64,000 nucleotides of DNA. Origin: Candidatus Woesearchaeota archaeon (GTDB lineage: Archaea > Nanobdellota > Nanobdellia > Woesearchaeales > UBA9989). Made by a program: the position numbers and the translations under genes. The notes under the pieces were generated by a model. That model was not told the origin of the DNA, ran no database searches, and was given only the letters and a program-made list of their open reading frames with translations. The DNA lies in the NCBI GenBank assembly GCA_013329045.1, contig DUKZ01000002.1, positions 30,662 through 94,661 on the forward strand, in the 5' to 3' direction. Below are positions 1,475-51,588 of the stretch, piece by piece (the stretch's first letter is position 1; every line of letters begins with the position of its first letter).

Positions 1475-2932
1475 TCACGTAAGGCGTTGCTGGCCGAATT
1501 GTTCCATGATTGATTCTAGCCCCTTTGAAAATGCACGAAAATCATCGCTTCTCATGGTATTTGTAAGCCCAGGGATCTGGTCTTGTGGGACTCCTGCTTG
1601 TTGGAGCTGACCAGAAAGTTCTTCCTGCAATTCTCTGAATCTTTCATCAAAGAGCTGATCCCTATATACCTGTGCCTGGAGAGGATTGGAGCTCAATAAT
1701 GATTGGTACTGATCATTCCTGTCAATTTCATGTTCAATGCCTGAGACGACAACGCCTAGTTGTTGGTAGAGTGGTTGTTGGAGGAGTGCATCAAAATCTC
1801 TTCGATCCATAAACGGCTCGACATGGGATGAATATGCTTGATCAACTATGCCGACAGGAACTTGAATCTCGCGAGGGTCGGGGTGTGATGCATCCCTAAG
1901 AGGGGAAGGTCCACGTTGAGGCGCTAAAGAGTGGAGCGCCTGCTCATAGAAGGGCGTATCCCTTGACGTCGCGTGCTGCTGAAGTTTTTGTAATCGTAAT
2001 TGTCGTATTGAAGACGCCCTTTTTGGTCGTCTGACATTCAGAGCATGTTTTCTTGGGATGTCTCGAAGGGATGCAAAATCAGGCCGTTCAAAAAGGTCAA
2101 TATTGGTATATCGGGCTTCTCCCCTTCTTAATTCAACGATACCAGCGCGTCCTTCCTCTGCATATGAGGCATCATAATGGAGGGATCGTGAAAATGTTCC
2201 GGGAGGAACATGATTCTCATTTGCATCATGTGCATAGCCAGCCCATTCATGGATATGGCCGCAGACGGCAACAGAAATGTTTTTTAGAGCAAAAAGGGTA
2301 TACAGGTCAAGGCTCCCAGAGTTTCGATAGCCGGCAAGCGCTGATGCATCAATGGCATCGCTCGTCTCAAACATCATGGGTTCATGGCATATTGCGATAG
2401 TAGGCTTTGTATCACTGAGAGTATCAACAATGTCTTCGATGTTATGGTACGTGATGAGCCCCTGTGCCTGGTTGTTTCTCACTAATCTCTGATAATCCTG
2501 AACAGTTTCAACTCGTGTCGCTCCCCCCTGTGTCTTGGCATACCAGCCGCTTGGCGCGTCTGTTCCAAATCGAAAGTCTCCATCCATATGTGATCCAGGC
2601 AGCAAAAGAATGTCTTGTTCGTCTCCATGAAGAACTGTCGGTGAGAAGATGCCATGGACACGGTCATAACGTTCATCACAAAAATCGATTATTGGATAGA
2701 GCGCTTCAAAGGAATCATGGTTTCCGGGCATGACATATGTTTCAAGGCCGCTCAGGAGAACAGCTTCCATGACATAGGTAATGCTATCCCGTGCTTCTGC
2801 CTCGGACATTCCCATGTCCATCAGATCTCCATTAAGGACCAGCGTATCTACCCCGCTTTTTTTCATCTCTTCAAGAAGATAAGGCACCAAATATGGTCTT
2901 TTGTGTATATCTGAGATGACACCGATTTTCAT
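1475..2932 (-). CDS. Calcineurin-like metallophosphoesterase with about 190-aa C-terminal extension of unknown function
   Basis: N-terminal motifs ISDIHKRP, LNGDLMDMG, GNHD (MPP signature D-x-H, GD, GNHD/E); converges on and abuts the stop of the upstream ORF. Confidence 0.7.
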   Translation of the reverse strand: MKIGVISDIHKRPYLVPYLLEEMKKSGVDTLVLNGDLMDMGMSEAEARDSITYVMEAVLLSGLETYVMPGNHDSFEALYPIIDFCDERYDRVHGIFSPTVLHGDEQDILLLPGSHMDGDFRFGTDAPSGWYAKTQGGATRVETVQDYQRLVRNNQAQGLITYHNIEDIVDTLSDTKPTIAICHEPMMFETSDAIDASALAGYRNSGSLDLYTLFALKNISVAVCGHIHEWAGYAHDANENHVPPGTFSRSLHYDASYAEEGRAGIVELRRGEARYTNIDLFERPDFASLRDIPRKHALNVRRPKRASSIRQLRLQKLQQHATSRDTPFYEQALHSLAPQRGPSPLRDASHPDPREIQVPVGIVDQAYSSHVEPFMDRRDFDALLQQPLYQQLGVVVSGIEHEIDRNDQYQSLLSSNPLQAQVYRDQLFDERFRELQEELSGQLQQAGVPQDQIPGLTNTMRSDDFRAFSKGLESIMEQFGQQRLT

Positions 2933-3394
2933 ATCTACACCTTTTTATTACTGTCTAGTAGTGTTCATAATATATAAAGATATCGGTGCAAGGTAGGTTT
3001 TATTCATTATTTTTGAATATAACAGTATAGACTTATCAACAATGCATCATTTGAATATAGTAAAGACTTATCTATACTAAATATAATTTTATTCATTATA
3101 ATTGAATAATAAACTGAAAAAGATTTGGTTTATTATATTATTTTTTTATATAGTTATTTATTATTTCTTAATATTAAATCATCTAAATTATCATTTATTC
3201 ATATTATTTATATAATAAACAAGAAGAAAAAAACAAAAAATCATAGATTATATAAATTAAAAAAGTTATCATTCATTTTATAAAAATAGATATACTACAA
3301 AAACCTACACTAACCGGCAAATTTATATAGTAGTATTCAAATAAAACATATAAAGATACTAAAATACTAAAAGAGGATTTAATATACTGAATAC
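2933..3394. promoter_or_regulatory. About 460-bp strongly AT-rich divergent intergenic region with imperfect direct repeats
   Basis: Very low GC relative to flanks; repeated TTATTCATTAT, TTTGAATATA(N)AGTA(W)AGACTTATC copies about 38 bp apart (3013-3040 and 3051-3076); separates divergent gene starts at 2932 and 3395. Confidence 0.4.
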
Positions 3395-3931
3395 ATGTTC
3401 AGTAAAAACACACTAAAGGTTATAGAATTTTTCGCTCGTCACCGTACTGAGAAGTTTAACATCAACCAGCTCGCAAGGACGCTAAAGATATCTCCTGGTT
3501 CTTCCCACACAATTCTCAAGGAGCTCGAAGAAAACACGATCGTTCGCTATGAGAAATGGGGCAACCAATTATTCTACCAGCTCAATCTCGAAGACAAGAA
3601 AGCAAGGAAGCTTGTCGAATTGGTCCTCATCATTGACAAAGAGCAAAGGGAGAAGGGCGCATTCAGGGACCTGGAAAAGATTGATGCTGATTGCATCGTT
3701 GTCTTTGACAAGCTCCAGAAATCAACGCTCGCCTTAATCATCGCAGAAAAGATTCTGCATGAGAAGATCAAAGCAAAACTTCCGGCAAATGTTGATCCAA
3801 TCATCCTCACCCTGGATGATGCGAAAGAAAAGTTGCGCTCAAAAGAAAAGACTATTGTCCAGCTGCTCGAATCAGGCATTGTCCTTGAGGGTGAAAACAT
3901 CGTAGTGGAGGTGATGGCCGGTGTTCAATAA
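3395..3931 (+). CDS. Winged-helix DNA-binding protein fused to degenerate minimal nucleotidyltransferase-like domain
   Basis: N-terminal wHTH-like segment (INQLARTLKISPGSSHTILKELEENTIV); overall architecture parallels the wHTH-MNT protein at 25726 but GS...DxD motif not conserved. Confidence 0.45.
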   Translation: MFSKNTLKVIEFFARHRTEKFNINQLARTLKISPGSSHTILKELEENTIVRYEKWGNQLFYQLNLEDKKARKLVELVLIIDKEQREKGAFRDLEKIDADCIVVFDKLQKSTLALIIAEKILHEKIKAKLPANVDPIILTLDDAKEKLRSKEKTIVQLLESGIVLEGENIVVEVMAGVQ

Positions 3932-4385
3932 GCCAATCCTCTGGACAAGTATCTTGTTCCTGATTATCAATCCAGCACTAGGATTTAATCCAAACACTGT
4001 TATGGAAAGCTTGCAAGACCTCATCATTGGCGGCTTTGCAAGGAATCCTGATATCTGGTCGTTCATCGGATTTTTCTTCCTGCTCTTTTCCGCGTTCATC
4101 TTAGCGGGAGGAAAAGCATTCGCTCACTTCCAGAACAAGAACGCTGTCATTGGGATAGCATTCACGCTGGCAGCAATTGGCGCATTAGGGCTAGTCAAGA
4201 TGGGGATAGCAATAGACATCCTCTTCCCCTGGATCAGGAACTTTGTCTATGTATTGCTCTTCATAGTCATCTTTGTCTTCACATCAACGATCATGGGCAA
4301 TGATGCGCCGGTGATAAAGAAAGGAATCGTCGCATTGGTAATTACCTTGTTGCTGGCAATAATAGAGCAGGTGGTGATCGGATGA
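3921..4385 (+). CDS. Polytopic membrane protein, paralog A (154 aa)
   Basis: GTG start 5 nt after GGAGGTGA SD; hydrophobic; shares the motif FIL(A/S)AFILAGGK.FA..NKNA.IG.A......VKMGI.I.FPWI(R/K)NFVYV with the next gene. Confidence 0.55.
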   Translation: MFNKPILWTSILFLIINPALGFNPNTVMESLQDLIIGGFARNPDIWSFIGFFFLLFSAFILAGGKAFAHFQNKNAVIGIAFTLAAIGALGLVKMGIAIDILFPWIRNFVYVLLFIVIFVFTSTIMGNDAPVIKKGIVALVITLLLAIIEQVVIG

Positions 4386-5524
4386 AGAAGAAGACGCTCA
4401 TCATCATCGTGGCAATCTTGTTCATCTGCAGCATAGCAGCTCCAGTTATTGCAGCAAAGATCACCATTGGAAGTGTTGGCGGCGCTTTTGGGAATGTCTT
4501 TACCAAGATGTCCCAGTTCTTTGCCGGCGGCTATGTGAAATTTAAGAAATTGATAGACTTCACTCTCTTTTTCATCCTCTTCCTCTCAGCGTTCATTTTG
4601 GCATTTGGCAAGTTCTTTGCTGACTACCCAAACAAGAATGCCATTATTGGAGTGGCTGTTGGCCTGGCATTGATGGGTTCAATGGTCATGGTCATGAAAG
4701 GTATTGGCATCGAGATGATTTTCCCCTGGATCAAGAATTTTGTGTATGTTATATTGGTGGTTATCATCTTCCAGCTTTTGTCCAATGAGAAACTGCTTGG
4801 CGGCAAGTCATGGTTCTGGAGATTGCTCCTGGCTATCATCATCACCTGGCTGATGTTCGTGCTCGGTGGAAGTCTTGTGAGGGGTGGAGGGGATATTGGA
4901 TCAGCATTGAGCAACCCTTTCAGCATTTTTAGGCCGGGAGCCGGGCCAGCTCCCCAGCTCTCACAGTCGCCCGCAAATGCGCAGGCAGCATTTGTGGAGT
5001 ACAAAGCAAGAGAAGACAAGCTTGCAAAGCAGGCGCAAGAGCTTGCAGCTGCAGTCAGTGGCGGCAGTACAGGGAAGTGTGGTGAACTCAAAAGACTGAC
5101 AGTACAAAAGCAGCAGGTATGTGTTGAACGTGTCTTTGCCCAGGCAGAAGCATATGCAGTCAATGAGCAGCATGACAACGCTGTTTCAGAGTATAATAAT
5201 ATCGGGAAGAACATCCAGTCGATGTGTGCTGACACCTCATTGAACGGTGTCCTTGCATCGAAATGCAACACACAAGTCGGCCTGGAGCTGAGTGCGCAGG
5301 ACTGGAACAAGATAAGCAATCGCTTGACAAGAGAATTGATCGCATATTCATATATTTTGGAAAAGCAGGGGCAGACCCAGCAGGCAATTGCGTTGCTGCA
5401 GCCGTATAGCGGAGCATTCTATTCGCAAAGTTCTCCCCATACAAATTCAGCTACTTTAGGGACTAAGGGAACCGGTGGATCTGCAAATCTGCCTTCAGGC
5501 CCTGCAGAATACCGATCAAAATAG
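4382..5524 (+). CDS. Polytopic membrane protein, paralog B with about 200-aa Cys-containing C-terminal soluble domain
   Basis: ATGA overlap with previous gene; N-terminal half paralogous to 3921-4385 product; C-terminal region hydrophilic with several Cys. Confidence 0.55.
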   Translation: MKKKTLIIIVAILFICSIAAPVIAAKITIGSVGGAFGNVFTKMSQFFAGGYVKFKKLIDFTLFFILFLSAFILAFGKFFADYPNKNAIIGVAVGLALMGSMVMVMKGIGIEMIFPWIKNFVYVILVVIIFQLLSNEKLLGGKSWFWRLLLAIIITWLMFVLGGSLVRGGGDIGSALSNPFSIFRPGAGPAPQLSQSPANAQAAFVEYKAREDKLAKQAQELAAAVSGGSTGKCGELKRLTVQKQQVCVERVFAQAEAYAVNEQHDNAVSEYNNIGKNIQSMCADTSLNGVLASKCNTQVGLELSAQDWNKISNRLTRELIAYSYILEKQGQTQQAIALLQPYSGAFYSQSSPHTNSATLGTKGTGGSANLPSGPAEYRSK

Positions 5525-5525
5525 G

Positions 5526-7868
5526 ATGAGAAACAAAACATTATCCGGACTGTGTCTGTTGATGATAGTGGTACTGCTTTCATCCCCAGTATTTGGCCAG
5601 GCATTAACTGATCGTGCTCAGGGTGATGTCTATACTAATCCTACATTACGCACCCCCCCACCAGTTGATGCACCTGGTGGAGCAGGATATGTATCACCCT
5701 CAGCAATCACTCTCGAGCAGGGTGACAAGAATCAGATTGATCAGCGGCTCAGTGCTTTATACATGAAGGCAGGAGATGAGTTTGTAGCAGCTGGACAGGC
5801 AGGGTTGGCGAATGATATGTATAAGAAGGTAACGGAGGTAGATCCCAATTCTCCCATGGCTCAGCAGAAATATTATGATACGATGGGTGATGTGGCGCCG
5901 GAGGCATCAGAATGCGAGTATCATTGTCAGATCAGGCTTAGGGGCAAACATAAGTGGAAGTGCATCATTCCAGAAGGGAAAAATACGCCAATATGGTTGC
6001 AAATCGACAGCGCAGAGGTAAAAGACCATTTCTACACTGACCCTTACACTTGTACTGTGGGTTCATGGGTGAGAAATCAGGGAGCAGGTGCAGGGAATCA
6101 GACAAGACGGCATCCGTTGGGATTGATGTTAATCATATTATTCATTATAGTGGGGATGTTCCAGAGGGGGAGAATGAATCTTGGCGTTTATGGAAACTGG
6201 CTTCTGGACATTCCTGGAAGATTTAATGCATCAGTGAGAAGAGCCTTTAATTGCCAGACAGTTGGAGAGGCTAAGGTGTTTTTAACTATTAAACCTGTAA
6301 GTATTCCCGGTATGGAATCACGCGCAGGAGAGATTTCAGGAAGGCGTTTAAAGTTCCACGCTCAGACCCCCCAACAAAGTATGAAACCTCATAATGAACC
6401 AAGAATCAGCTCTGTTACATGTTCTGCTGAAGTTAAGGTTCCACTTCATGGTCAATACGAACCGCTCCATAGGTTTCTGCGCGCAGATGAAGAAAGGGTC
6501 CGGAGAGCAATTAGGGGAAGAAGAACAATAGGTGGGAATGGAGGAACAAGCCTTCGGCGTGTAATTGACCATAATAACAGGATTCTCAGAGCCGCATCAG
6601 GCGCATCACCGACTTTATCAACCGATGTGAATGCACTTGAGGCAGCAGTTGAACTTGGCCTGGGACCGGCAACTGATGCCAACCCTCATATATCGCCAAG
6701 AGAGATATCCAGAGTGGTCAACCACGCCGTTGATTTGTTGGATCTGCCTGGAAATCCTAGCTCTCAGATTACACCTGCTGCCTTGCAGGCCGCAGTCGAA
6801 GCCGAAGCACAGAATTTTGCCAGAGAGGGGCATGTTCCAAGGAGACGGGTTATCATGCCAGATACGGATATCCATTTTGGAATTCAGGGTGAAGAAGGTG
6901 CAGGTATCTATTATCGTTCAGACGTCCATTGGGAATTCCTCAACCCTGACGGATCAAACGAAGCGACACCAGGCTCACAGCAAAGACTGTCAGGAACAAG
7001 ATTGAGGAATGTCATTGAGAATACAAGGCATCTTGTTTATCCAGAGGCAGTCCCTCTAAGCGAAGAATCAACTGCCAGGGCAGTCTTTGTCCCCAACTTT
7101 GGAATGGAAGACAAGGAGATCACACTCTCAGCAAGATATGCAAAATATACCGGCACAGCAAACTTATTCATCAGGCAGCATGACACCATCAAAATCAATA
7201 GTTTGTCTGTCGGATCTACTGCTTTACTGGTAGCAAATCCTGCTGAACCGATCTTTGAGATTAGACCAAGCGGCTCTGAGCGTGTCCATGTCCATGTGGA
7301 AGTGACAAACAATAAGACAGAAAAATCGGTGCAAGCGCTCGTTTACTTCAAGGTTGAATCTGGAACGACAACCGATGGGCGGCCTTACATGTTCAACCCC
7401 GGATGGTTTGAGCACGATACCGCCACAACAGCAGTTGGAGGGGGTAAAGTTGGGCAAACAGAAGGTGTATATCTTCTTTCACCGGATAGCAACAGGCTGT
7501 CAAACGTAAGGATCCCGAGGGGATTGGTATTCCCAGCTGATAAAGACGCATGGAATGCTGCTTTCGCGGCCATCGAAGAAGAAAAACGAAAGGATATGGG
7601 GACCTACAGTTCACTAAGCTCTGCACAAAGAAGAGACCTGCTATCATACCTCAACAAAAACAATATTATGGTGAATTTATCAATTGATTATGATGAGTTC
7701 TGGGATAAAGACAAGAACCCATATCACGTCACCCTCATCGCTTATTCAGGTAATATCTCAGAGACTCATGCACATCTCAGGTTCACAAACAAGGGTACTG
7801 GCAGCCAACAGCCGCCAACAACAACGATACGGGTCGCCCCCTACCAGCCCCAAAATAACATACCATGA
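5526..7868 (+). CDS. Large secreted/membrane-anchored protein of unknown function (about 780 aa)
   Basis: Start MRNKTLSGLCLLMIVVLLSSPVFGQA looks like a signal peptide; internal TM segment (LGLMLIILFIIVGMF); alternative upstream in-frame start at 5475 overlaps previous gene. Confidence 0.55.
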   Translation: MRNKTLSGLCLLMIVVLLSSPVFGQALTDRAQGDVYTNPTLRTPPPVDAPGGAGYVSPSAITLEQGDKNQIDQRLSALYMKAGDEFVAAGQAGLANDMYKKVTEVDPNSPMAQQKYYDTMGDVAPEASECEYHCQIRLRGKHKWKCIIPEGKNTPIWLQIDSAEVKDHFYTDPYTCTVGSWVRNQGAGAGNQTRRHPLGLMLIILFIIVGMFQRGRMNLGVYGNWLLDIPGRFNASVRRAFNCQTVGEAKVFLTIKPVSIPGMESRAGEISGRRLKFHAQTPQQSMKPHNEPRISSVTCSAEVKVPLHGQYEPLHRFLRADEERVRRAIRGRRTIGGNGGTSLRRVIDHNNRILRAASGASPTLSTDVNALEAAVELGLGPATDANPHISPREISRVVNHAVDLLDLPGNPSSQITPAALQAAVEAEAQNFAREGHVPRRRVIMPDTDIHFGIQGEEGAGIYYRSDVHWEFLNPDGSNEATPGSQQRLSGTRLRNVIENTRHLVYPEAVPLSEESTARAVFVPNFGMEDKEITLSARYAKYTGTANLFIRQHDTIKINSLSVGSTALLVANPAEPIFEIRPSGSERVHVHVEVTNNKTEKSVQALVYFKVESGTTTDGRPYMFNPGWFEHDTATTAVGGGKVGQTEGVYLLSPDSNRLSNVRIPRGLVFPADKDAWNAAFAAIEEEKRKDMGTYSSLSSAQRRDLLSYLNKNNIMVNLSIDYDEFWDKDKNPYHVTLIAYSGNISETHAHLRFTNKGTGSQQPPTTTIRVAPYQPQNNIP

Positions 7869-9169
7869 GTACGCAAGAGAAAAACGGATCGAGAACCCAG
7901 ATAGCCGGCCCAGAGATATTTATCCTGTCCGAAGGGCAAAACCCAACTGAGGCAAAAGCAGCAATAATCAATCTAAGGGATTTATTGATGAGACGTATCG
8001 CAGGAACAAGAATGCAGGTGACGAATGTTCGCAGAAAAATGCAAGATGCTCCACGACGAGCAGATCACAAACAATTTCAAGAATTAGAAGAAGGCCTGAA
8101 AAAACTCGAAGAAACGTATGAAAAAGAGGCTCCAGAGATACTGCAACGAATGATTACAGCTGCTGAAAAAGGAGAATTTGAAACATGCGTAAGGCTCTAT
8201 GAGTATGATTTACGAGAGGTTATCAATAAGGCAAAGCACGCCGGCCCGGTAATAAATATGGCGTACGCAACAATCGAAAAGCATATGAGAGTATTAGAAA
8301 AGATAAAGAAAAAACAAGATTTAACGACAGAAGACATCAACTACTTAATTGATAATCTTGGTCCTGACCACCCTCATTTATGGGACCATTACCTCCATGC
8401 TGATAATCACCCAAAAACACTTGTCTTTTCAAAGGAGCATAGCTATATGATGGATGCATTTACCATTCATGACAATCGCCCATTGCTTCATCTAAGGGGG
8501 TATCCTGTGGATAGAGGATGGATTGATATAAGAGAAATAAGCCGCTTAGCTGAAAAATTTGCCTCTTTCCAGGATCATGTGGTATTAGCAAACAGGATAA
8601 TCACCATTCACATGCTCCTGGATTTCATCCATCACCATAGGCATGATCATCGTATGGAAAAAGCACTCATCGGAAAATATATTATAAGAAAGGATCATTT
8701 TATGACACCTCAAGAGCAGATGAGGATGCCAGCAAACCTCAATCTGCCGATGATTGATGGGATACAAGAGATGCAAGGCAGGGTAGCATTCCATTTCAGC
8801 GCGGTAAGAGATATGAAAGGCCAGCTACCAATCTGGATTCCTAGCGATGCAAGGATCCTGAACTATGCGATTGCCCTTATCCAGCATGAACAAAGGATTT
8901 TCGAAGAACTCAGCAATGACACAATGGTAGGAATCCAGGGCAAGCGTCTGCACGAAGTGCTTCTCCTCGATAAGCATACAAAGCCAGCATTTGAAGTAGC
9001 TATCAATAATTTAAGAATGTGGTCGGGATCAGGGATCACATTCACAATTGAAAAAGAGCGCATCATGAGATGGATGAAACAGTATTTCCTCATTGACCAT
9101 GCAGCAGTTGATGCGAGGGCAGCACAACATGGTGAACAAATGGTCGAAGAGCATCGGAGGGCAGCTTGA
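7865..9169 (+). CDS. Hypothetical His-rich protein (434 aa)
   Basis: ATGA overlap with upstream gene stop; His-dense segment (HPHLWDHYLHADNHP...HHHRHDH) suggests possible metal binding; no known motif recognised. Confidence 0.5.
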   Translation: MSTQEKNGSRTQIAGPEIFILSEGQNPTEAKAAIINLRDLLMRRIAGTRMQVTNVRRKMQDAPRRADHKQFQELEEGLKKLEETYEKEAPEILQRMITAAEKGEFETCVRLYEYDLREVINKAKHAGPVINMAYATIEKHMRVLEKIKKKQDLTTEDINYLIDNLGPDHPHLWDHYLHADNHPKTLVFSKEHSYMMDAFTIHDNRPLLHLRGYPVDRGWIDIREISRLAEKFASFQDHVVLANRIITIHMLLDFIHHHRHDHRMEKALIGKYIIRKDHFMTPQEQMRMPANLNLPMIDGIQEMQGRVAFHFSAVRDMKGQLPIWIPSDARILNYAIALIQHEQRIFEELSNDTMVGIQGKRLHEVLLLDKHTKPAFEVAINNLRMWSGSGITFTIEKERIMRWMKQYFLIDHAAVDARAAQHGEQMVEEHRRAA

Positions 9170-10212
9170 CTGAGTGGCAGCCATCGGGAAGAGAACCCCC
9201 CTTTCTCTTGATTGGTACGAACAGGATAGAACTGACGCAAACAAGGACTGGTGTCAACGGATTTAGTGAATTAGGAGCCAGTCTCCCTGGTGGAGGGGTT
9301 ACTCTACCGGTGACAATCGATACATCAACAATGATAGACGTCAGGGTGAGAGGGTTTGTTTTCCATTCTGAAATAGGTCCTTATGCATTGTCCCGTCTCG
9401 GTACATCTGGTGCATTCGCCCATCAGGCGACATTCCAAATTGTTCCAGGGACAGATCTTTTTTTGAATCTTATTCCATGCGGAAAAATAAAGGGGGTGGT
9501 CTTTAACGCATCAAACAGAAAAACACCAGTTCCTTTGGGAAACGTTAAACTCAGAACCACCGAACGCCAAGGAGGAAGGAGGGGGGCAGTGGTATTTGAT
9601 GAGGTCATCACTAATGCTAAGGGTGAATATGAGCTTTATGTTGATCCATGGAAAAGTTACGATGTTTTGATTGATAGGACGACACACCCAGGAGATCTTC
9701 ATCCATTGTCGTCAGGAGGTATGATTGATCATAATGCATCGTTCTCATCAGAAAGCCACGTTGAGGACAATCAGCAAGCGATTCTTAATCGAGGTCCAAG
9801 AACAGCAGGGAGTGGTTGGTCAATCAAATCAGGTAACGAAGAAACCTTTAATATTTATCTCTTCCCTGCAAGTGTGCCGGTCATCACCCACCTCAATGCA
9901 GGATCAGGCGATGTGAACAATGGTTCACTTGTGGTTGAAGTCGACTCTGCCCTGGGAACAGTTGTAACGATTCAAGTGAAAGGCCACTCCTTCAAAAATC
10001 ATACTGGTTTTCAGGTAGTGAGTGGAATCAAAGTGGATTCAAGATGGTTCCCCTATACCAATGATTCTGACACTAATGGAACATTAACTATTGACTCGAC
10101 TGCTACTGAGGGTGAGTATTGGCTCATTTTAAGGAATCATATCGGGGAGGGTAGTAATCTGACGATAGCAGGAGCACCATATCATTTCACCATTAAAAAA
10201 AAAACACCATGA
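9166..10212 (+). CDS. Hypothetical beta-rich protein, possible carboxypeptidase-regulatory-like (CarbopepD_reg) domain
   Basis: TTG start overlapping upstream stop (cTTGA); segment GKIKGVVFNASNRKTPVPLGNVKL...AKGEYELYV resembles CarbopepD_reg beta-sandwich pattern. Confidence 0.4.
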   Translation: MTEWQPSGREPPFLLIGTNRIELTQTRTGVNGFSELGASLPGGGVTLPVTIDTSTMIDVRVRGFVFHSEIGPYALSRLGTSGAFAHQATFQIVPGTDLFLNLIPCGKIKGVVFNASNRKTPVPLGNVKLRTTERQGGRRGAVVFDEVITNAKGEYELYVDPWKSYDVLIDRTTHPGDLHPLSSGGMIDHNASFSSESHVEDNQQAILNRGPRTAGSGWSIKSGNEETFNIYLFPASVPVITHLNAGSGDVNNGSLVVEVDSALGTVVTIQVKGHSFKNHTGFQVVSGIKVDSRWFPYTNDSDTNGTLTIDSTATEGEYWLILRNHIGEGSNLTIAGAPYHFTIKKKTP

Positions 10213-11609
10213 TCCATGAATGTCCGATCCCAAAAATTAAAGATTTAGAATTCGTATATGATTCTGGAGAGTTTATTGGCCGTGCAGTAAGTAGAATTAA
10301 ACGAGGATCGATAAAATTAGATACGATTATTGAGCGGAATCGGGAACTCGAGGCTCTTCGGCAGATCATTAGTCAATATTTGCAAATCAACAATACCATC
10401 TTACCACCAGCAATACCAAGTGGTCGTTGGCCCTGGGAGCAAGCAGTAAGCGCAGTTAACACAAGGGCCCCTCCGGGATCTTATCTTGAAGAATTATGGA
10501 AAATGAATATTGGTCAATTATTGGATTATTTAGACCAGGTATCTAGAGAGATCCAAGCAGCATGGGAACCCATGACCAAAGAAACTAAACGGGCAATTGG
10601 GTTTGTAAGGACAGACAAGGATTGGCCATCAGGATATGGAAGAATGAGAAATCTTGCTTTTATTTCTAAGAATCATGGGCAAAAGTTGATCCAGATTCTA
10701 GCAAAGATACGGGGAACTAGTACTGGAAGCGAGAATACTGATTTTATATATGCTGCTTCAATCTGGCATCAATTATGGACATTATTTGCATTTGGGATAT
10801 GGCGTATAAATAAGATTAGGGAGGTATTCTGTGAAGAACTCGTCCATGGTGGAGCGCCTCCCCCCAAAATTCTTCAACCCAGCACCGTGGAGCTATCACC
10901 CTCAATCCCAACAATTCCTCTTTCCCCCGTAGATTCAGGTGATGATGAATGGACAACTATACTAAAGAGCGGTGGGAGGATACCAATAAGGGATGGGTTA
11001 CATGGCAGCAAATCAGATAGAAAATTCTATTTTCCTCAGGGAGCATGGATGAACTTCCCGGGAGAGCAGCCTGGCCTTGACACAGGTTGGAAGTTTCACA
11101 TCCTCACTGAATCTAGCGATGAACTCCTAGCACTTGGCCGTGTTCTCATACCTTTCTTTTGTTCTGAGGGATGGAACTTCAAAACAGCCGTGTCAATAGA
11201 TAAATTCAATGAATTTTTTGGTGATGAGGCAAACAAGCAGTTCGGCAAAGGGTTTGTTGTCTATATCGATGCCCCTAACCCTGCAGATATTGCAGAGGTG
11301 AAAACCATTGCTCACTCGATGAGGGAGAAGATAATCAAAAAGATTCAAGAAAGCGGTGTCGGCAAGCCAAAACATGAGGTAAAAGGAGACGCTCCTGTCC
11401 CAGGCGATCTGACTGGAAGGCTCTATCACAGATATGAGTTCACTTCGCCGGGGAGAGAGAAAAAGTATGAAGGGAACTACAGAAAAAATGATGGTAAACA
11501 TTATAATATCGAAGAAAATGAGGATATCTTTGAGGGTATTAATCATGAAAGATATCCATTAATTAGGGTATGGTTTTCACCTCCCAAGAACTGGATGGCA
11601 AGACCATAA
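10209..11609 (+). CDS. Hypothetical protein (466 aa)
   Basis: ATGA overlap with upstream stop; long ORF, no recognisable motif. Confidence 0.5.
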   Translation: MIHECPIPKIKDLEFVYDSGEFIGRAVSRIKRGSIKLDTIIERNRELEALRQIISQYLQINNTILPPAIPSGRWPWEQAVSAVNTRAPPGSYLEELWKMNIGQLLDYLDQVSREIQAAWEPMTKETKRAIGFVRTDKDWPSGYGRMRNLAFISKNHGQKLIQILAKIRGTSTGSENTDFIYAASIWHQLWTLFAFGIWRINKIREVFCEELVHGGAPPPKILQPSTVELSPSIPTIPLSPVDSGDDEWTTILKSGGRIPIRDGLHGSKSDRKFYFPQGAWMNFPGEQPGLDTGWKFHILTESSDELLALGRVLIPFFCSEGWNFKTAVSIDKFNEFFGDEANKQFGKGFVVYIDAPNPADIAEVKTIAHSMREKIIKKIQESGVGKPKHEVKGDAPVPGDLTGRLYHRYEFTSPGREKKYEGNYRKNDGKHYNIEENEDIFEGINHERYPLIRVWFSPPKNWMARP

Positions 11610-11635
11610 AAAGTATTAAAAAGGTGAAAAAGTAG

Positions 11636-12235
11636 GTGAGTAGAATGAAAGGAAGAATTATCCTCTACATGGGCATAACAGCAATCCCTTCCGTCTTTGC
11701 CTTCACTCCCCTGGCGATTGCCGGTGCTGGTGCTGGAGGCATTGGCGTATTGGTGGGCATTGCCTACCTCATTGCAAGAAGGAGCACGAAATCAAGAAAG
11801 CTTTCTGCTGACACTTCCCGCATGGATGACCATGGGAGAAGGTCGAGGCACTTGTCTCATGCTGCTGCAAAGGCAGCACAGACCGCTGCCGTTGACCCGA
11901 GGCAGGCTTCTTCCCTTGCAACAACATTGCAGGCCCAGATCACTCAATTCAACCAGATGGCTGCTTTGTTTGATAGGATGTATCACGAGGCAAACAATGT
12001 GCTGACAAGGAATCCTCAGTTGAGAAGTAGGTATAGCAGGCAGCTGGCGTTCATCACAGAAGGAAGAAGAAAGATCACTGATGCTCAAAAAATCATTCGT
12101 GATGCCCACACAGCCCTCTCGAAAAGAGAATACAATAGGTGCCAATCATTAACCCGGCAGCTCCAGAATTCCTGGCTCGTCAGTAATTGGGGTAAGGTAG
12201 AAAGTGCGTGTCGCGACATTGCAAATGCAAGATAG
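11636..12235 (+). CDS. N-terminally membrane-anchored helical protein (199 aa)
   Basis: Hydrophobic N-terminus (ILYMGITAIPSVFAFTPLAIAGAGAGGIGVLVGIAYLIA) followed by basic then helical Q/R-rich region; GGTGAG SD-like upstream. Confidence 0.45.
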   Translation: MSRMKGRIILYMGITAIPSVFAFTPLAIAGAGAGGIGVLVGIAYLIARRSTKSRKLSADTSRMDDHGRRSRHLSHAAAKAAQTAAVDPRQASSLATTLQAQITQFNQMAALFDRMYHEANNVLTRNPQLRSRYSRQLAFITEGRRKITDAQKIIRDAHTALSKREYNRCQSLTRQLQNSWLVSNWGKVESACRDIANAR

Positions 12236-12294
12236 AGAACCATAATGCTTAAATATGTTCAAAGTGAGAGGAAAAGAAAGGAGAAGGTGAGACA

Positions 12295-13266
12295 ATGATC
12301 ACAGGCTATCGGAGAAACGCATTTAGTTCACATCACTTAATTCGGCAGCTGCGCCATATCTGTTTTCGGCTCAGTGCTGATTTCAAGAATGAAAAAGGGG
12401 ACGAGCACAGGGTTATCACCGAGCTGGGGGATATGAAGGAGCAAGCGGCCGTCCTTTACACAAATAAGGATGCAAAGAAGAAGCAGGAAGCCTTGGAGAG
12501 ATTGAAGAGGAAGGCAAAGGATGATGAGAATGATTTTGCAGCGTTTGGCAAGGAGGTAGATGAGATTGCCCTCTTGATCAACCAGGCAGAAAAGGGTCTG
12601 GCAGCGATCATCTATCGGGAAAACGTCGAGATTGTCACAAAGAACAGAAGATTAGATGAGTTGATCGCACAGCACGAGATTCCCCCTCACCTCGCTCAGC
12701 AGGTAAAAGAGGCGCTCAGGGGGGTCTATGAAGATCTAAAAGGGATGGAAAGTGGCCAAAGAAAACACGCACGAAAGGCTGCAAGGGGCAAAGGATTTAT
12801 CATGTTCTCTTTTGTTAGTGATGGAAGGACTGCAAGGATTGTCAGGAAGGAAGGCCGCATCCTTGAAAATCTCGATGTGGAATATGGCAAAGAAGAAACT
12901 ATCCTTGAGATGGATATCCAGAAGCATGACATCCAGGGCATCCTAGACGTATATAATGCGATAATCCATATTCTTCAGAAAGAAGTCGACGAGGAAGGTG
13001 ACATGTTTGATTATCTAGACAGGGAGTTCCAGGATGACAAGAAGGATCTCGACAAGGTTTCTCAGATGCTGATGCGTGCGATGGGTGATGGGAACATCAA
13101 GCATTTCAGCGACCAGAATTCCCCGCAGGAGTTGAAGGAATTATGGAAGACATTGGAAACGTCCCGGGTGAATCTCAATAATGTCAGAGCCCACGTGACA
13201 AAGATCGGAAATGAAGCATACCGTAGAGCTCGCGCGGAAAGAAAGGAAGAAAAATTAGCTGCATAA
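12295..13266 (+). CDS. Hypothetical coiled-coil protein (323 aa)
   Basis: GGAGAAGGTGAGACA-ATG SD context; E/K-rich helical composition. Confidence 0.5.
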   Translation: MITGYRRNAFSSHHLIRQLRHICFRLSADFKNEKGDEHRVITELGDMKEQAAVLYTNKDAKKKQEALERLKRKAKDDENDFAAFGKEVDEIALLINQAEKGLAAIIYRENVEIVTKNRRLDELIAQHEIPPHLAQQVKEALRGVYEDLKGMESGQRKHARKAARGKGFIMFSFVSDGRTARIVRKEGRILENLDVEYGKEETILEMDIQKHDIQGILDVYNAIIHILQKEVDEEGDMFDYLDREFQDDKKDLDKVSQMLMRAMGDGNIKHFSDQNSPQELKELWKTLETSRVNLNNVRAHVTKIGNEAYRRARAERKEEKLAA

Positions 13267-13282: not shown

Positions 13283-13990
13283 ATGAAGGTAGAACTTGAG
13301 AAAAAGCCACAGAATGTTATCATCGTTGAGGGCTTTCCAGGCTTTGGGCTTGTGGGAACAGTTGCTTCTGAATATCTCATTGAGCACCTAAAGGCTGAAT
13401 ACATCGGCCATTTATGGTTTGATGAATTGCCGGCAACAATCGCTGTCCACGCAGGAAAGATTATTCGCCCAATCGAGATCCACTACGCAAAAAAATACAA
13501 TATGGTAATAGTCCATTCGATCGCTTCTGGCCAGGGGATGGAATGGAAGATCTCAACACTGCTAAATGAGCTGGCAAAGACATTGAAGGCAAAAGAGATT
13601 TTTTCCCTTGAAGGTGTTGGCAGCCAGGAGGCAACAGAAAAGCCAAAAGTATATTTCTATTCAACTGATGAGAAGCGTGGAAAGATGCTCACCACTGCTG
13701 GGGTAAAATCACTCGATGAGGGGATCGTGATGGGTGTCACATCAGCAGTTCTTCTCAAGTCTCCATTGCCAACAACAGCATTGTTTGCAGAGACCCATAC
13801 TGCCTTGCCGGATTCAAAGGCCGCAGCAGAGATCATCAAGGTGCTTGATAAATTATTCAACTTAGGTATAGACATCAAACCGCTCATCGCGATGGCTGCC
13901 CAGTTTGAGGAGAAAGTTAAAGGTTTGATCCAGCAAAGCGAGGCAGCAGTTGATGGTGCGCAAAGGAAAAAACTCAGTTATGTAGGATAA
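13283..13990 (+). CDS. PAC2-family (proteasome assembly chaperone 2-like) protein
   Basis: N-terminal IVEGFPGFGLVGTVA matches the G-x-PG-x-G-x-VG-x-x-A signature of PAC2/PbaA-like proteins; GAGGT SD upstream. Confidence 0.5.
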   Translation: MKVELEKKPQNVIIVEGFPGFGLVGTVASEYLIEHLKAEYIGHLWFDELPATIAVHAGKIIRPIEIHYAKKYNMVIVHSIASGQGMEWKISTLLNELAKTLKAKEIFSLEGVGSQEATEKPKVYFYSTDEKRGKMLTTAGVKSLDEGIVMGVTSAVLLKSPLPTTALFAETHTALPDSKAAAEIIKVLDKLFNLGIDIKPLIAMAAQFEEKVKGLIQQSEAAVDGAQRKKLSYVG

Positions 13991-42773: not shown

Positions 42774-42775
42774 AG

Positions 42776-42864
42776 CGCGCCTGAAGGGATTCGAACCCTC
42801 GGCCTACTGCTCTCACCATACCATATAGGAGGCAGTCGCTCTATCCAAGCTGAGCTACAGGCGC
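42776..42864 (-). tRNA. tRNA-Arg (anticodon CCU) with 14-nt canonical-position intron
   Basis: Cloverleaf: acceptor GCGCCTG/CAGGCGC, D-arm GCTC-AGCTTGGATA-GAGC, anticodon stem ACTGC/GCAGT, loop CU-CCU-A|intron TATGGTATGGTGAG (42812-42825)|A, T-arm GAGGG-TTCGAAT-CCCTT, discriminator G; no encoded CCA. Confidence 0.8.
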
Positions 42865-51428: not shown

Positions 51429-51485
51429 AGAGGAATGTACGTCTACATTTTATTTAAATCTTTCTATGTGGACGTATAGAAAAAA

Positions 51486-51588
51486 GCCCCCGGCGAGAGT
51501 TGAACTCGCGACCTGCTGATTGCCTGCTAATGGCTACAAGTTTCAGCTCATAGAGAACAGCCGCTATAGCCACTAAGCCACGGGGGCA
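51486..51588 (-). tRNA. Intron-containing tRNA (about 30-nt intron), isotype not confidently assigned
   Basis: Acceptor GCCCCCG/CGGGGGC, D-loop with GG, T-arm GCGAG-TTCAACT-CTCGC, anticodon stem GCTG(T)/(T)CAGC separated by about 30 nt; U discriminator; followed by T6 tract; anticodon UCU possible only with atypical C33. Confidence 0.6.

Follow-up and report, generated by a model that had tools for sequence, protein, structure and literature searches.

A Woesearchaeota-specific family of four-helix membrane proteins with variable C-terminal domains, seen through a tandem pair of short and long members

Two adjacent genes of a woesearchaeotal contig, here called A and B, encode paralogs that belong to one membrane-protein family, previously undescribed and specific to Woesearchaeota. 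The family combines a constant N-terminal module of four transmembrane helices with a C-terminal part that changes from one member to the next. We give about even chances to the view that this family is a membrane anchor for surface domains, peculiar to the lineage, and that A acts in it as a base-only partner of B. The window analysed is a stretch of 64,000 nucleotides of contig DUKZ01000002.1 of a Candidatus Woesearchaeota archaeon; L-numbers denote other loci that hold members of the family or homologs of the gene upstream of A.

A tandem pair of paralogs

The two genes, and the parts of B that matter in what follows, are these:
3907-3915, 5 nt upstream of gene A: GGAGGTGAT, Shine-Dalgarno-like, read from the sequence
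3921-4385, + strand: gene A, 154 aa, GTG start; base-only family member without ectodomain, its product having a weak signal-peptide-like leader, an amphipathic helix and four transmembrane helices
4382-5524, + strand: gene B, 380 aa, ATG start
4382..4915, + strand: N-terminal module of gene B (aa 1-178), from AF2 and the family HMM
4892..5524, + strand: C-terminal ectodomain of gene B (aa 171-380), all-helical, orphan

The ATG of gene B overlaps the TGA stop of gene A in an ATGA at 4382-4385, and each product opens with a hydrophobic leader, after which come four transmembrane segments. The earlier note, which had described tandem, ATGA-coupled genes for polytopic membrane proteins with a common core, was thus exact on the reading frames. 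As for the core, a composition-adjusted BLASTP comparison aligns residues 26-123 of A with residues 38-135 of B, ungapped, with 44 identities over 98 positions (45%, E 2e-23). All the motifs quoted for it are present: SAFILAGGK in A and SAFILAFGK in B, then NKNAVIG and NKNAIIG, and finally FPWIRNFVYV and FPWIKNFVYV. The Smith-Waterman score of the pair, 239, is to be set against 43.5 +/- 7.6 for full shuffles (z 25.7), and against 46 +/- 8.3 (z 23.4) for shuffles within blocks of 20 residues, a procedure that preserves local hydrophobicity. At third codon positions A and B are identical at only 35%, which argues for an old duplication.

Both proteins being very hydrophobic, one might suspect, as the earlier note did when it named hydrophobic composition as the possible weakness of its own proposal, that the similarity is a compositional artefact. 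Alternatively, A might be a decaying pseudogene, gene A at L001 being seemingly split into two ORFs. BLASTP and both kinds of shuffles refute the first idea. As to the second, the split at L001 is a scaffold gap of Ns between misassembled bases, while the reading frame of A itself is intact, encodes the family motifs and is preceded by a Shine-Dalgarno-like sequence. The chances of either reading are next to nil.

A family brought out by exhaustive search

Neither A nor B matched a family in Pfam, NCBIfam, PHROGs, PADLOC or the PDB (in PHROGs, A gives one match of 19 residues, E 0.005, and B none). Word-indexed protein searches with full-length B, with the family profile or with the B ectodomain returned almost nothing, and the A+B alignment (A1) had zero matches in the genome collection. 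Only an exhaustive HMMER search brought out the family, as 65 cluster representatives at E<1e-3 which share an N-terminal module of about 170 aa and of which the named ones are all Woesearchaeota or an unclassified 'archaeon'. Membership is defined by a match over the whole of this module to a profile built from alignment A3, to which gene A corresponds with E 3e-33 (HMM positions 4-158) and gene B with E 3e-49 (positions 1-171). What had been termed an unknown family, to be sought in other archaea, is therefore a real one. A literature search on OmpA surface proteins of Woesearchaeota brought up nothing relevant.

The constant module

In the AF2 model of the B module (43-sequence alignment, pLDDT 83, pTM 0.63), a signal-peptide helix (residues 3-24) with an AxA-type site near 22-25 and an amphipathic helix (33-53) precede four predicted transmembrane helices, at 55-78, 85-105, 110-133 and 144-166. 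The four-helix module has no specific fold match, the best one in BFVD having E 0.75. Conserved residues, in B numbering, are Y51, D59, F60, F63, F64, F67, K77, P115, K118, A151 and T155, whence a signature that reads aromatic at 51, D59-F60, F63-F64, F67, P115-aromatic-x-K118, A151 and T155. It is complete in B, and A has equivalent residues save for G instead of D59 (IGFFFLLF) and R instead of K118. Across members, D59 is found in 86%, K118 in 61% and T155 in 65%; a four-helix bundle with these three residues conserved is more elaborate than a plain anchor requires.

The mean net charge over 71 members is -1.4 before the first transmembrane helix, +1.2 in loop 1, +1.55 in loop 3 and -0.6 after the fourth helix. 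Since this bias fits a topology with both ends outside the cell, and since the C-terminal domains are of extracytoplasmic types, the two ends of the module would lie outside, leaving cytoplasmic loops of about 10-14 residues (about 12 for loop 3). Read from the sequence, the segment that precedes the first helix of B is net positive, opposite to the family average. Members of the A/B family would have their signal peptide cleaved.

The variable C-terminal part

Beyond the module, everything changes. The C-terminal part spans 0-1130 aa across the family and is hypervariable, with 35 BLAST clusters among 59 domains. Those that can be recognised, namely OmpA (5 members), SLT, Big_2, TIG, SdrD_B, SpaA, bMG3, Peptidase_C1 and PKD, are typically of extracytoplasmic type. 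Against an outer location speaks the relative at L032, whose GT4 glycosyltransferase domains are of a kind usually found in the cytoplasm.

The ectodomain of B corresponds to the additional cysteine-bearing domain already noticed: it comprises 210 residues, with low-complexity ends rich in Gly, Pro and Ser, and its four cysteines (233, 247, 282, 295) probably make two disulfides. Sequence searches with it found no homolog. AF2 in single-sequence mode builds helices only, with a pLDDT of 64 that rises to about 85-90 for domain residues 30-130; Foldseek against the PDB gives E 0.63 at best, and the best PDB sequence match is a coiled coil (E 0.005). An archaeosortase substrate was also considered and rejected, B ending in ...ANLPSGPAEYRSK, without PGF motif or hydrophobic tail.

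Short and long forms

The tandem of a base-only gene and a long one recurs at no fewer than four other loci, L005 (with a 4-nt overlap), L009, L025 and L034. The short-then-long order comes with overlapping stop and start in the window, at L005 and at L034. Between L025 and L034 the short forms are 91% identical and the N-domains of the long forms 72%, and the short forms of three genomes cluster together in a tree of 20 sequences. With this recurrent tandem and this well-conserved short form, hetero-oligomerisation of A and B is plausible.

A and B might also be independent, non-interacting paralogs in a fast-evolving surface locus, A having lost, or never gained, an ectodomain. In a tree of 12 sequences, copies from the same genome pair together (bootstrap 94% for the window, 100% for L009, 86% for L004, 69% for L008), which points to repeated local duplication; the tree of 20 sequences groups the window pair at 64% and does not group that of L009 (6.5%). 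Two family members lie apart, with other genes between, at L004 and L008, and L002 and L003 have a single detectable member each, so that a partner is not obligatory. However, the same order is found again and again, short forms are kept and are more conserved across species than the N-domains of long forms, and A retains conserved positions of the family. We hold independence of the two proteins to be distinctly unlikely.

The regulator upstream and the genes downstream

The surroundings of the pair are as follows:
3322..3329, + strand: TATA-like box TTTATATA, in AT-rich DNA between genes, about 65 nt ahead of the winged-helix gene
3395-3931, + strand: MarR/ArsR-like winged-helix protein, 178 aa, with sub-threshold wHTH matches
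5526..7868, + strand: next operon gene, 780 aa from the ATG at 5526, 1 nt past the stop of B
7865-9169, 9166-10212, 10209-11609, 11636-12235 and 12295-13266, + strand: five co-directional ORFan genes, tightly packed or overlapping
13283-13990: PAC2, after the five ORFan genes

The strongest contextual feature, missed in the earlier note, is the coupled winged-helix gene upstream, whose end runs 11 nt into gene A. Its product consists of an N-terminal wHTH (about residues 1-70) and a C-terminal domain of about 100 aa. Pfam scores stay below threshold (MarR_2, 16.3 bits for a cut-off of 27; HTH_IclR, 17.8 for 22), matches to Penicillinase_R are weak (E 0.076, and E 0.34 to 1p6r), and a profile of the regulator meets ZitR, AdcR and Lrp structures, MarR-type included, at E 1.5e-4 to 5e-2 over the wHTH part only. 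The homolog at L012 has unmarked precomputed matches to MarR_2 and HTH_24. Full-length homologs (28-36% identity) stand directly upstream of family members at L003, L010, L011, L012 and L013, where, as in the window, the distance is 0-11 nt or the genes overlap. Among GTDB species-representative genomes, all 29 close regulator homologs are followed, on their own strand, by a family member, which is the immediate neighbour in 24 cases, a coupling which suggests that the module may do more than tether. The family loci L002, L004, L005 and L008 have no adjacent regulator. In this region (2001-4000) the GC content is 0.39, and the sequence of TTTATATA makes it a candidate operon promoter.

Downstream of B, the N-terminus of the 5526-7868 product, MRNKTLSGLCLLMIVVLLSSPVFGQ, looks like a signal peptide, and around residue 200 comes another hydrophobic stretch; searches gave no family match for this product. 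The genes from 7865 to 13266 are probably in one operon with A and B. When equivalent clusters of other genomes are compared by BLASTP, phmmer and jackhmmer, homology is confined to the family, the regulator, PAC2, L35Ae, an ATPase-wHTH gene and two small proteins; the five ORFan genes have no detectable homologs there. Neighbours of the family are usually large proteins with signal peptides, and at L012 the gene that follows the family member encodes 2309 aa, among them glycosyltransferase, amidase and LytR domains. The island in which the locus lies is hypervariable; its place on the chromosome is conserved and syntenic across genomes. A holin, tried as a candidate, was discarded: there is no holin-family match and no lysis-cassette context, and the locus is chromosomal and syntenic.

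An anchor and its rivals

Of the two functions that had been put forward, channel or anchor, the former finds no support and the latter agrees with a constant N-terminal four-helix module bearing hypervariable, typically extracytoplasmic domains. In the anchor reading, A and B would be Sec-exported paralogs, in which a signal peptide, to be cleaved, and an amphipathic helix lying at the membrane interface lead up to a four-helix bundle whose two ends are outside the cell. The bundle would be the membrane-embedded base, and the variable part, joined to its last helix, would stand out from the membrane on its external side: in B a helical domain of 210 residues, in relatives an OmpA-like, lytic transglycosylase, papain-like protease, PKD or Ig-like domain. 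ATGA coupling may fix the proportion of A to B, and within the membrane A would most likely join B in one assembly, either as its spacer or as a partner that sets stoichiometry. The pair, presumably co-transcribed and translationally coupled with a dedicated MarR-like regulator, would head a fast-evolving cell-envelope operon. Paralogy, the existence of the family, its architecture, its fold class and the synteny are established by the analysis; topology is inferred from charge bias and domain types, and so are anchoring, cleavage of the signal peptide and assembly of A with B.

The regulator invites another reading, trans-membrane signalling, in which the four-helix protein is a sensor paired with the MarR-like protein. 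The variable ectodomain would sense when the cell touches a host envelope or polymer, with A as co-receptor or decoy, and the short conserved cytoplasmic loops would bind or release the regulator, thereby switching the downstream operon. The constant upstream position of the regulator gene, the association of all 29 close homologs in GTDB with the family, its conserved C-terminal domain, and the design itself, in which the membrane module stays constant and the outer domains vary as in a transmitter with its sensors, all go in this direction. Yet the cytoplasmic loops are very short and there is no cytoplasmic output domain; Pfam scans found neither protease nor anti-sigma domain; the ectodomain types are those of enzymes or adhesins, not classical sensor folds; four family loci lack an adjacent regulator; and operon-leading regulators are common without any physical coupling to the products. 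Signalling is in our view unlikely. We are still more doubtful of its strongest form, an unrecognised archaeal trans-envelope device in which an exchangeable ectodomain, be it peptidoglycan-binding, lytic, protease, Ig-like or the orphan helical one of B, reports host contact, the base holds or releases the regulator and A tunes the receptor. If true, this device would switch on the adjacent hypervariable host-interaction operon, as a counterpart, in function, of bacterial sigma/anti-sigma or BlaR1/BlaI systems. Conserved polar residues at membrane boundaries (D59, K118, T155), together with the peptidoglycan-binding OmpA-like domains of five members and the SLT domain of one, which recall MotB or holin-endolysin pairings, might make of the module an ion channel, a stator-like or transporter subunit or a holin-like pore, be it a MotA/MotB-like unit with its OmpA-like domain or a pore working with lytic domains; this we find very improbable.

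With the anchor reading, A and B pass from 'hypothetical protein' to paralogous members, base-only and helical-ectodomain, of a defined anchor family, a modest gain. Woesearchaeota are abundant and uncultivated, have small genomes, and are thought to live on or prey upon other microbes; they have lineage-specific membrane or extracellular families, and extracellular transglycosylase proteins whose presumed targets are bacterial hosts (PMC8204110, PMC9723730). At such an interface one would expect domains of the kinds that the constant base carries, for peptidoglycan binding, lytic transglycosylase and papain-like protease activity, besides adhesin-like repeats. Module 98 of Castelle et al. 2021 likewise gathers lineage-specific, unannotated families of Woesearchaeota and Pacearchaeota, predicted to be membrane or extracellular, from genomes that also encode extracellular lytic-transglycosylase proteins; they are listed there by number only, without architecture, pairing or regulator linkage (PMC8204110). 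The family profile and the two-gene signature provide a searchable marker for the surface repertoires of Woesearchaeota, and the family is a target for proteomics and cryo-ET labelling as well as a source of hypotheses on pairing and regulator coupling.

Likeness to known systems

BlaR1/MecR1 with BlaI/MecI, beta-lactam sensor-transducers and their winged-helix repressors, also associate, in one operon, a winged-helix gene and a four-helix protein with a C-terminal extracellular domain. BlaR1 combines a sensor domain that binds penicillin with an M56 zinc-metalloprotease (HEXXH) set in a large cytoplasmic loop; in the A/B family, by contrast, loop 3 is short and without protease motif, and gene order is reversed. 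A BlaR1/MecR1 identity was rejected, Pfam finding no Peptidase_M56 in A, B or 63 relatives. RsgI-SigI and ECF sigma/anti-sigma pairs show the same succession of a factor gene and a coupled membrane protein with a variable extracellular part, which in RsgI-type proteins varies between paralogs and may be a carbohydrate-binding or enzyme-like module. Anti-sigma factors, however, cross the membrane once and bear their anti-sigma domain in the cytoplasm, at the N-terminus, while the A/B family has four helices and no cytoplasmic domain, and its factor is an archaeal MarR-like wHTH in place of a sigma factor; the likeness would be one of function alone, by analogy.

MotB/Pal-type proteins working with MotA/TolQ resemble the five members that fuse the membrane module to an OmpA-like domain, but the family has no similarity to MotA_ExbB or to the MotB plug, and the OmpA-like domain is one of about 35 ectodomain types, absent from A and B. 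A MotA/TolQ/ExbB stator was rejected as a candidate: Pfam and NCBIfam gave no MotA_ExbB match, and D59 lies at a helix boundary, not in the membrane core, and is absent from A. Finally, PGF-CTERM/archaeosortase substrates and the SlaB stalk of Sulfolobus also tether fast-evolving surface proteins to the cytoplasmic membrane, near genes for large secreted proteins. There the attachment is by one C-terminal helix or by a lipid, whereas the A/B family has an N-terminal four-helix bundle and leaves its C-terminus free, that of B being ...PSGPAEYRSK.

A pair of old paralogs behind a regulator gene

Two adjacent, ATGA-coupled genes encode polytopic membrane proteins with a shared core, the second bearing an extra Cys-containing domain of about 200 residues. 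This observation of the earlier note is confirmed in all its details, the coordinates and the overlap agreeing with the ORF list and with the sequence.

3395-3931, + strand: MarR/ArsR-like winged-helix gene (the regulator), 178 aa, a winged helix and an uncharacterised C-terminal half
3921-4385, + strand: gene A, GTG start, 154 aa
4382-5524, + strand: gene B, ATG start, 380 aa
5526-13266, + strand: tightly packed or overlapping, co-directional run of ORFan genes, with equivalent clusters at database loci L002-L005, L008, L010 and L011

The regulator stop overlaps the start of A, whose TGA in turn overlaps the ATG of B (4382-4385). Upstream of A, GGAGGTGAT at 3907-3915 supports its GTG start. 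Residues 26-123 of A match residues 38-135 of B over 98 positions without gaps (45% identity, BLASTP E 2e-23), and in a MAFFT alignment the similarity spans all of A. A purely compositional likeness is ruled out: the Smith-Waterman score is 239, against 43.5 +/- 7.6 for full shuffles of B (z = 25.7) and 46 +/- 8.3 for shuffles within 20-residue blocks (z = 23.4). The 98 aligned codons retain 56% nucleotide identity, and 35% at third positions, so that the duplication is old and no recent copy. Hydropathy gives both proteins an N-terminal hydrophobic leader followed by four transmembrane segments, beyond which B continues for 210 more residues, four of them Cys.

Gene A looks split, at about 985-1030, in L001, a near-identical contig of the same aquifer sample; a true split was rejected, a run of Ns with about 30 non-matching flanking bases being a scaffold gap. 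The L001 copy of B differs by K3Q. Exact-sequence look-ups identify the window as archaeon GW2011_AR4 / Candidatus Woesearchaeota, in which the operon genes (QS99_C0001G0037-46) are each annotated 'hypothetical protein'. The window also holds thermosome, CDC48, GatD and PAC2 genes, which are archaeal markers.

An undescribed family with a constant module

Neither protein has a match in Pfam, NCBIfam, PHROGs or PADLOC, and word-indexed protein searches returned self only; the family, rightly called unknown in the earlier note, is undescribed in the libraries searched. Relatives in other archaea do exist: an exhaustive HMMER search with an A+B profile retrieved 65 cluster representatives at E<1e-3, all with the same N-terminal module of ~170 residues, those with a source name being Woesearchaeota or 'archaeon'. 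For the B module, AF2 run on a 43-sequence alignment (pLDDT 83) predicts a leader (3-24), an amphipathic helix (33-53) and four long helices (55-78, 85-105, 110-133 and 144-166). Conserved positions are, in B numbering, Y51, D59-F60, F63-F64, F67, K77, P115, K118, A151 and T155.

The linked regulator

In L003, L010, L011, L012 and L013 a full-length homolog of the regulator, 28-36% identical to the window protein, either overlaps a family gene or is 0-8 nt away. Species-representative genomes, searched with an alignment of the regulator, gave 46 loci; their labels read Woesearchaeota, Nanoarchaeota, Nanoarchaeia or 'uncultured Methanosarcinales'. A family member follows on the same strand in 29/29 close homologs (at least 35% identity), directly adjoining in 24 and after one intervening gene in five, and in 0/17 distant homologs. 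This linkage is the strongest regularity that we found. The intervening gene is small and conserved (about 145-200 aa) in L019, L020, L025 and L035, and encodes a 447-aa Schlafen/AlbA_2-wHTH protein in L018.

The small protein, of about 145-198 aa with an M.(I/V)EVDQSGKIEQ N-terminus, stands between regulator and family gene in one subclade (L019 3418-4014, L020 4515-4952, L025 4515-4958, L035 1851-2432, L009 2-577); it has no Pfam match and is absent from the window. Fifteen records with Woesearchaeota-type regulator homologs are named 'uncultured Methanosarcinales archaeon' (L014, L019, L022, L023, L026, L028, L029, L033, L036, L039, L040, L042, L047, L049 and L057), with a family gene after the regulator in 11/15; L040 and L011 are one contig. 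These TPA assemblies probably bear a placeholder or mistaken organism label.

Short and long forms

In several loci besides the window a base-only short form, like A, stands immediately upstream of a long form with an ectodomain, like B, stop and start overlapping.

L005/L006: short 180 aa, long 746 aa, 4-nt overlap
L009: short 178 aa, long 427 aa
L025: short 169 aa, long 665 aa
L034: short 173 aa, long 710 aa, regulator first, exactly the window arrangement

Two members are separated by one or two genes in L004 and L008, and L002 and L003 have a single member. In neighbour-joining trees A and B group together (64-94% bootstrap), which makes the window pair a separate duplication. In the clade of L009, L025 and L034, short forms cluster across genomes (65% bootstrap); the two-form state originated more than once. 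Between L025 and L034 the short forms are 91% identical, the long-form modules 72%: better conserved than its partner, the base-only form is a maintained gene and not debris.

Topology and variable ectodomains

Averaged over 71 members, net charge is -1.4 before TM1, +1.2 in loop 1, +1.55 in loop 3 and -0.6 after TM4, the pattern that would be expected with both termini extracellular. AxA-type sites can be read after the leader in most members. Beyond the fourth helix anything from 0 to 1130 residues may follow, and these regions, in 59 sequences, fall into 35 unrelated BLAST clusters. Recognisable C-terminal domains comprise OmpA (5 members), SLT, Big_2, TIG, SdrD_B, SpaA, CarboxypepD_reg and bMG3, to which more loci add papain-like Peptidase_C1 and PKD; these types are typically extracytoplasmic, consistent with the proposed topology, with the exception of L032 and its GT4 glycosyltransferase domains. 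Neither a homolog search nor a fold search found a match for the B ectodomain, which AF2 in single-sequence mode predicts to be all-helical with moderate confidence (pLDDT 64; ~85-90 over domain residues 30-130).

The long forms of L022, L025 and L034 show a second partial module match (HMM positions 106-168, the last two helices) ~160 aa after the first, which suggests an internal duplication adding two transmembrane helices. Large polytopic proteins near the cluster start (L010 1087-4629, L003 5693-7798, L005 4072-6501, L008 3827-5215) have a leader and helices spaced as in the module. Their profile-profile match to it is weak (HHalign probability 88%, 67 columns), that of L003 alone being matched by hmmsearch (E 5e-6); they may be very distant paralogs.

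A proposed membrane base for interchangeable domains

Of the two roles proposed in the earlier note, the anchor is the best-supported: the four-helix module would be a lineage-specific membrane base presenting interchangeable extracellular domains, A being a base-only paralog co-produced with B, and the two, with their dedicated regulator, would head a fast-evolving envelope or host-interaction operon. Co-assembly of A and B we infer from coupling and recurrence only. The main rival reading, favoured by the 29/29 linkage, makes the module a transducer that signals to the regulator; against it stand the tiny size of the cytoplasmic loops and the lack of an output domain. The channel did not survive scrutiny, nor did holin, stator, BlaR1 or archaeosortase-substrate readings, each failing its own defining features. 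The membrane-base reading agrees with published inferences for Woesearchaeota, namely of surface proteins that degrade peptidoglycan and of membrane or extracellular families specific to the lineage (PMC8204110, PMC9723730). The finding is real and its theme, a membrane-tethered surface protein, is familiar; unusual are the four-helix N-terminal anchor, the recurrent base-only partner and the tightly linked regulator. It is of value for DPANN biology, the function of the family being what we infer.

Genomic neighbourhood

Family genes sit within long co-directional runs of unannotated genes, many encoding signal peptides or transmembrane segments; between 3395 and 13266 of the window, genes overlap or are separated by at most ~60 nt. 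The clusters occupy a conserved chromosomal position relative to rpl35Ae and/or PAC2: directly downstream of rpl35Ae in L003, L005 and L008, adjoining it on the opposite strand in L004, and with PAC2 downstream of them in the window, L002, L004 and L011. Apart from a leading ATPase-wHTH gene common to L003, L004 and L005, comparison of the remaining cluster genes between genomes detected no similarity.

The ORFan run, placed between rpl35Ae and PAC2, has loosely alike protein sizes across genomes (about 800, 430 and 350-750 aa) and gives the impression of a hypervariable island of cell-envelope genes whose chromosomal position is fixed. After the family gene of L012 comes, at 5383-12312, a 2309-aa protein with GT2/GT1 glycosyltransferase, Amidase_2 and LytR_cpsA_psr domains, a cell-wall-related multi-enzyme giant encoded by a DPANN genome. 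The 466-aa protein at 10209-11609 of the window has as its 90% cluster representative an unrelated-looking 46-aa peptide, MSWGGLDEYP..., present on hundreds of Logan contigs, a grouping that looks like a database clustering artefact rather than window biology. Finally, the window has two tRNA genes (89-103 nt), which presumably both contain introns.

42775-42864, - strand: tRNA-Arg (CCT) gene, ARAGORN and Rfam
51485-51587, - strand: tRNA gene, Rfam only, missed by ARAGORN
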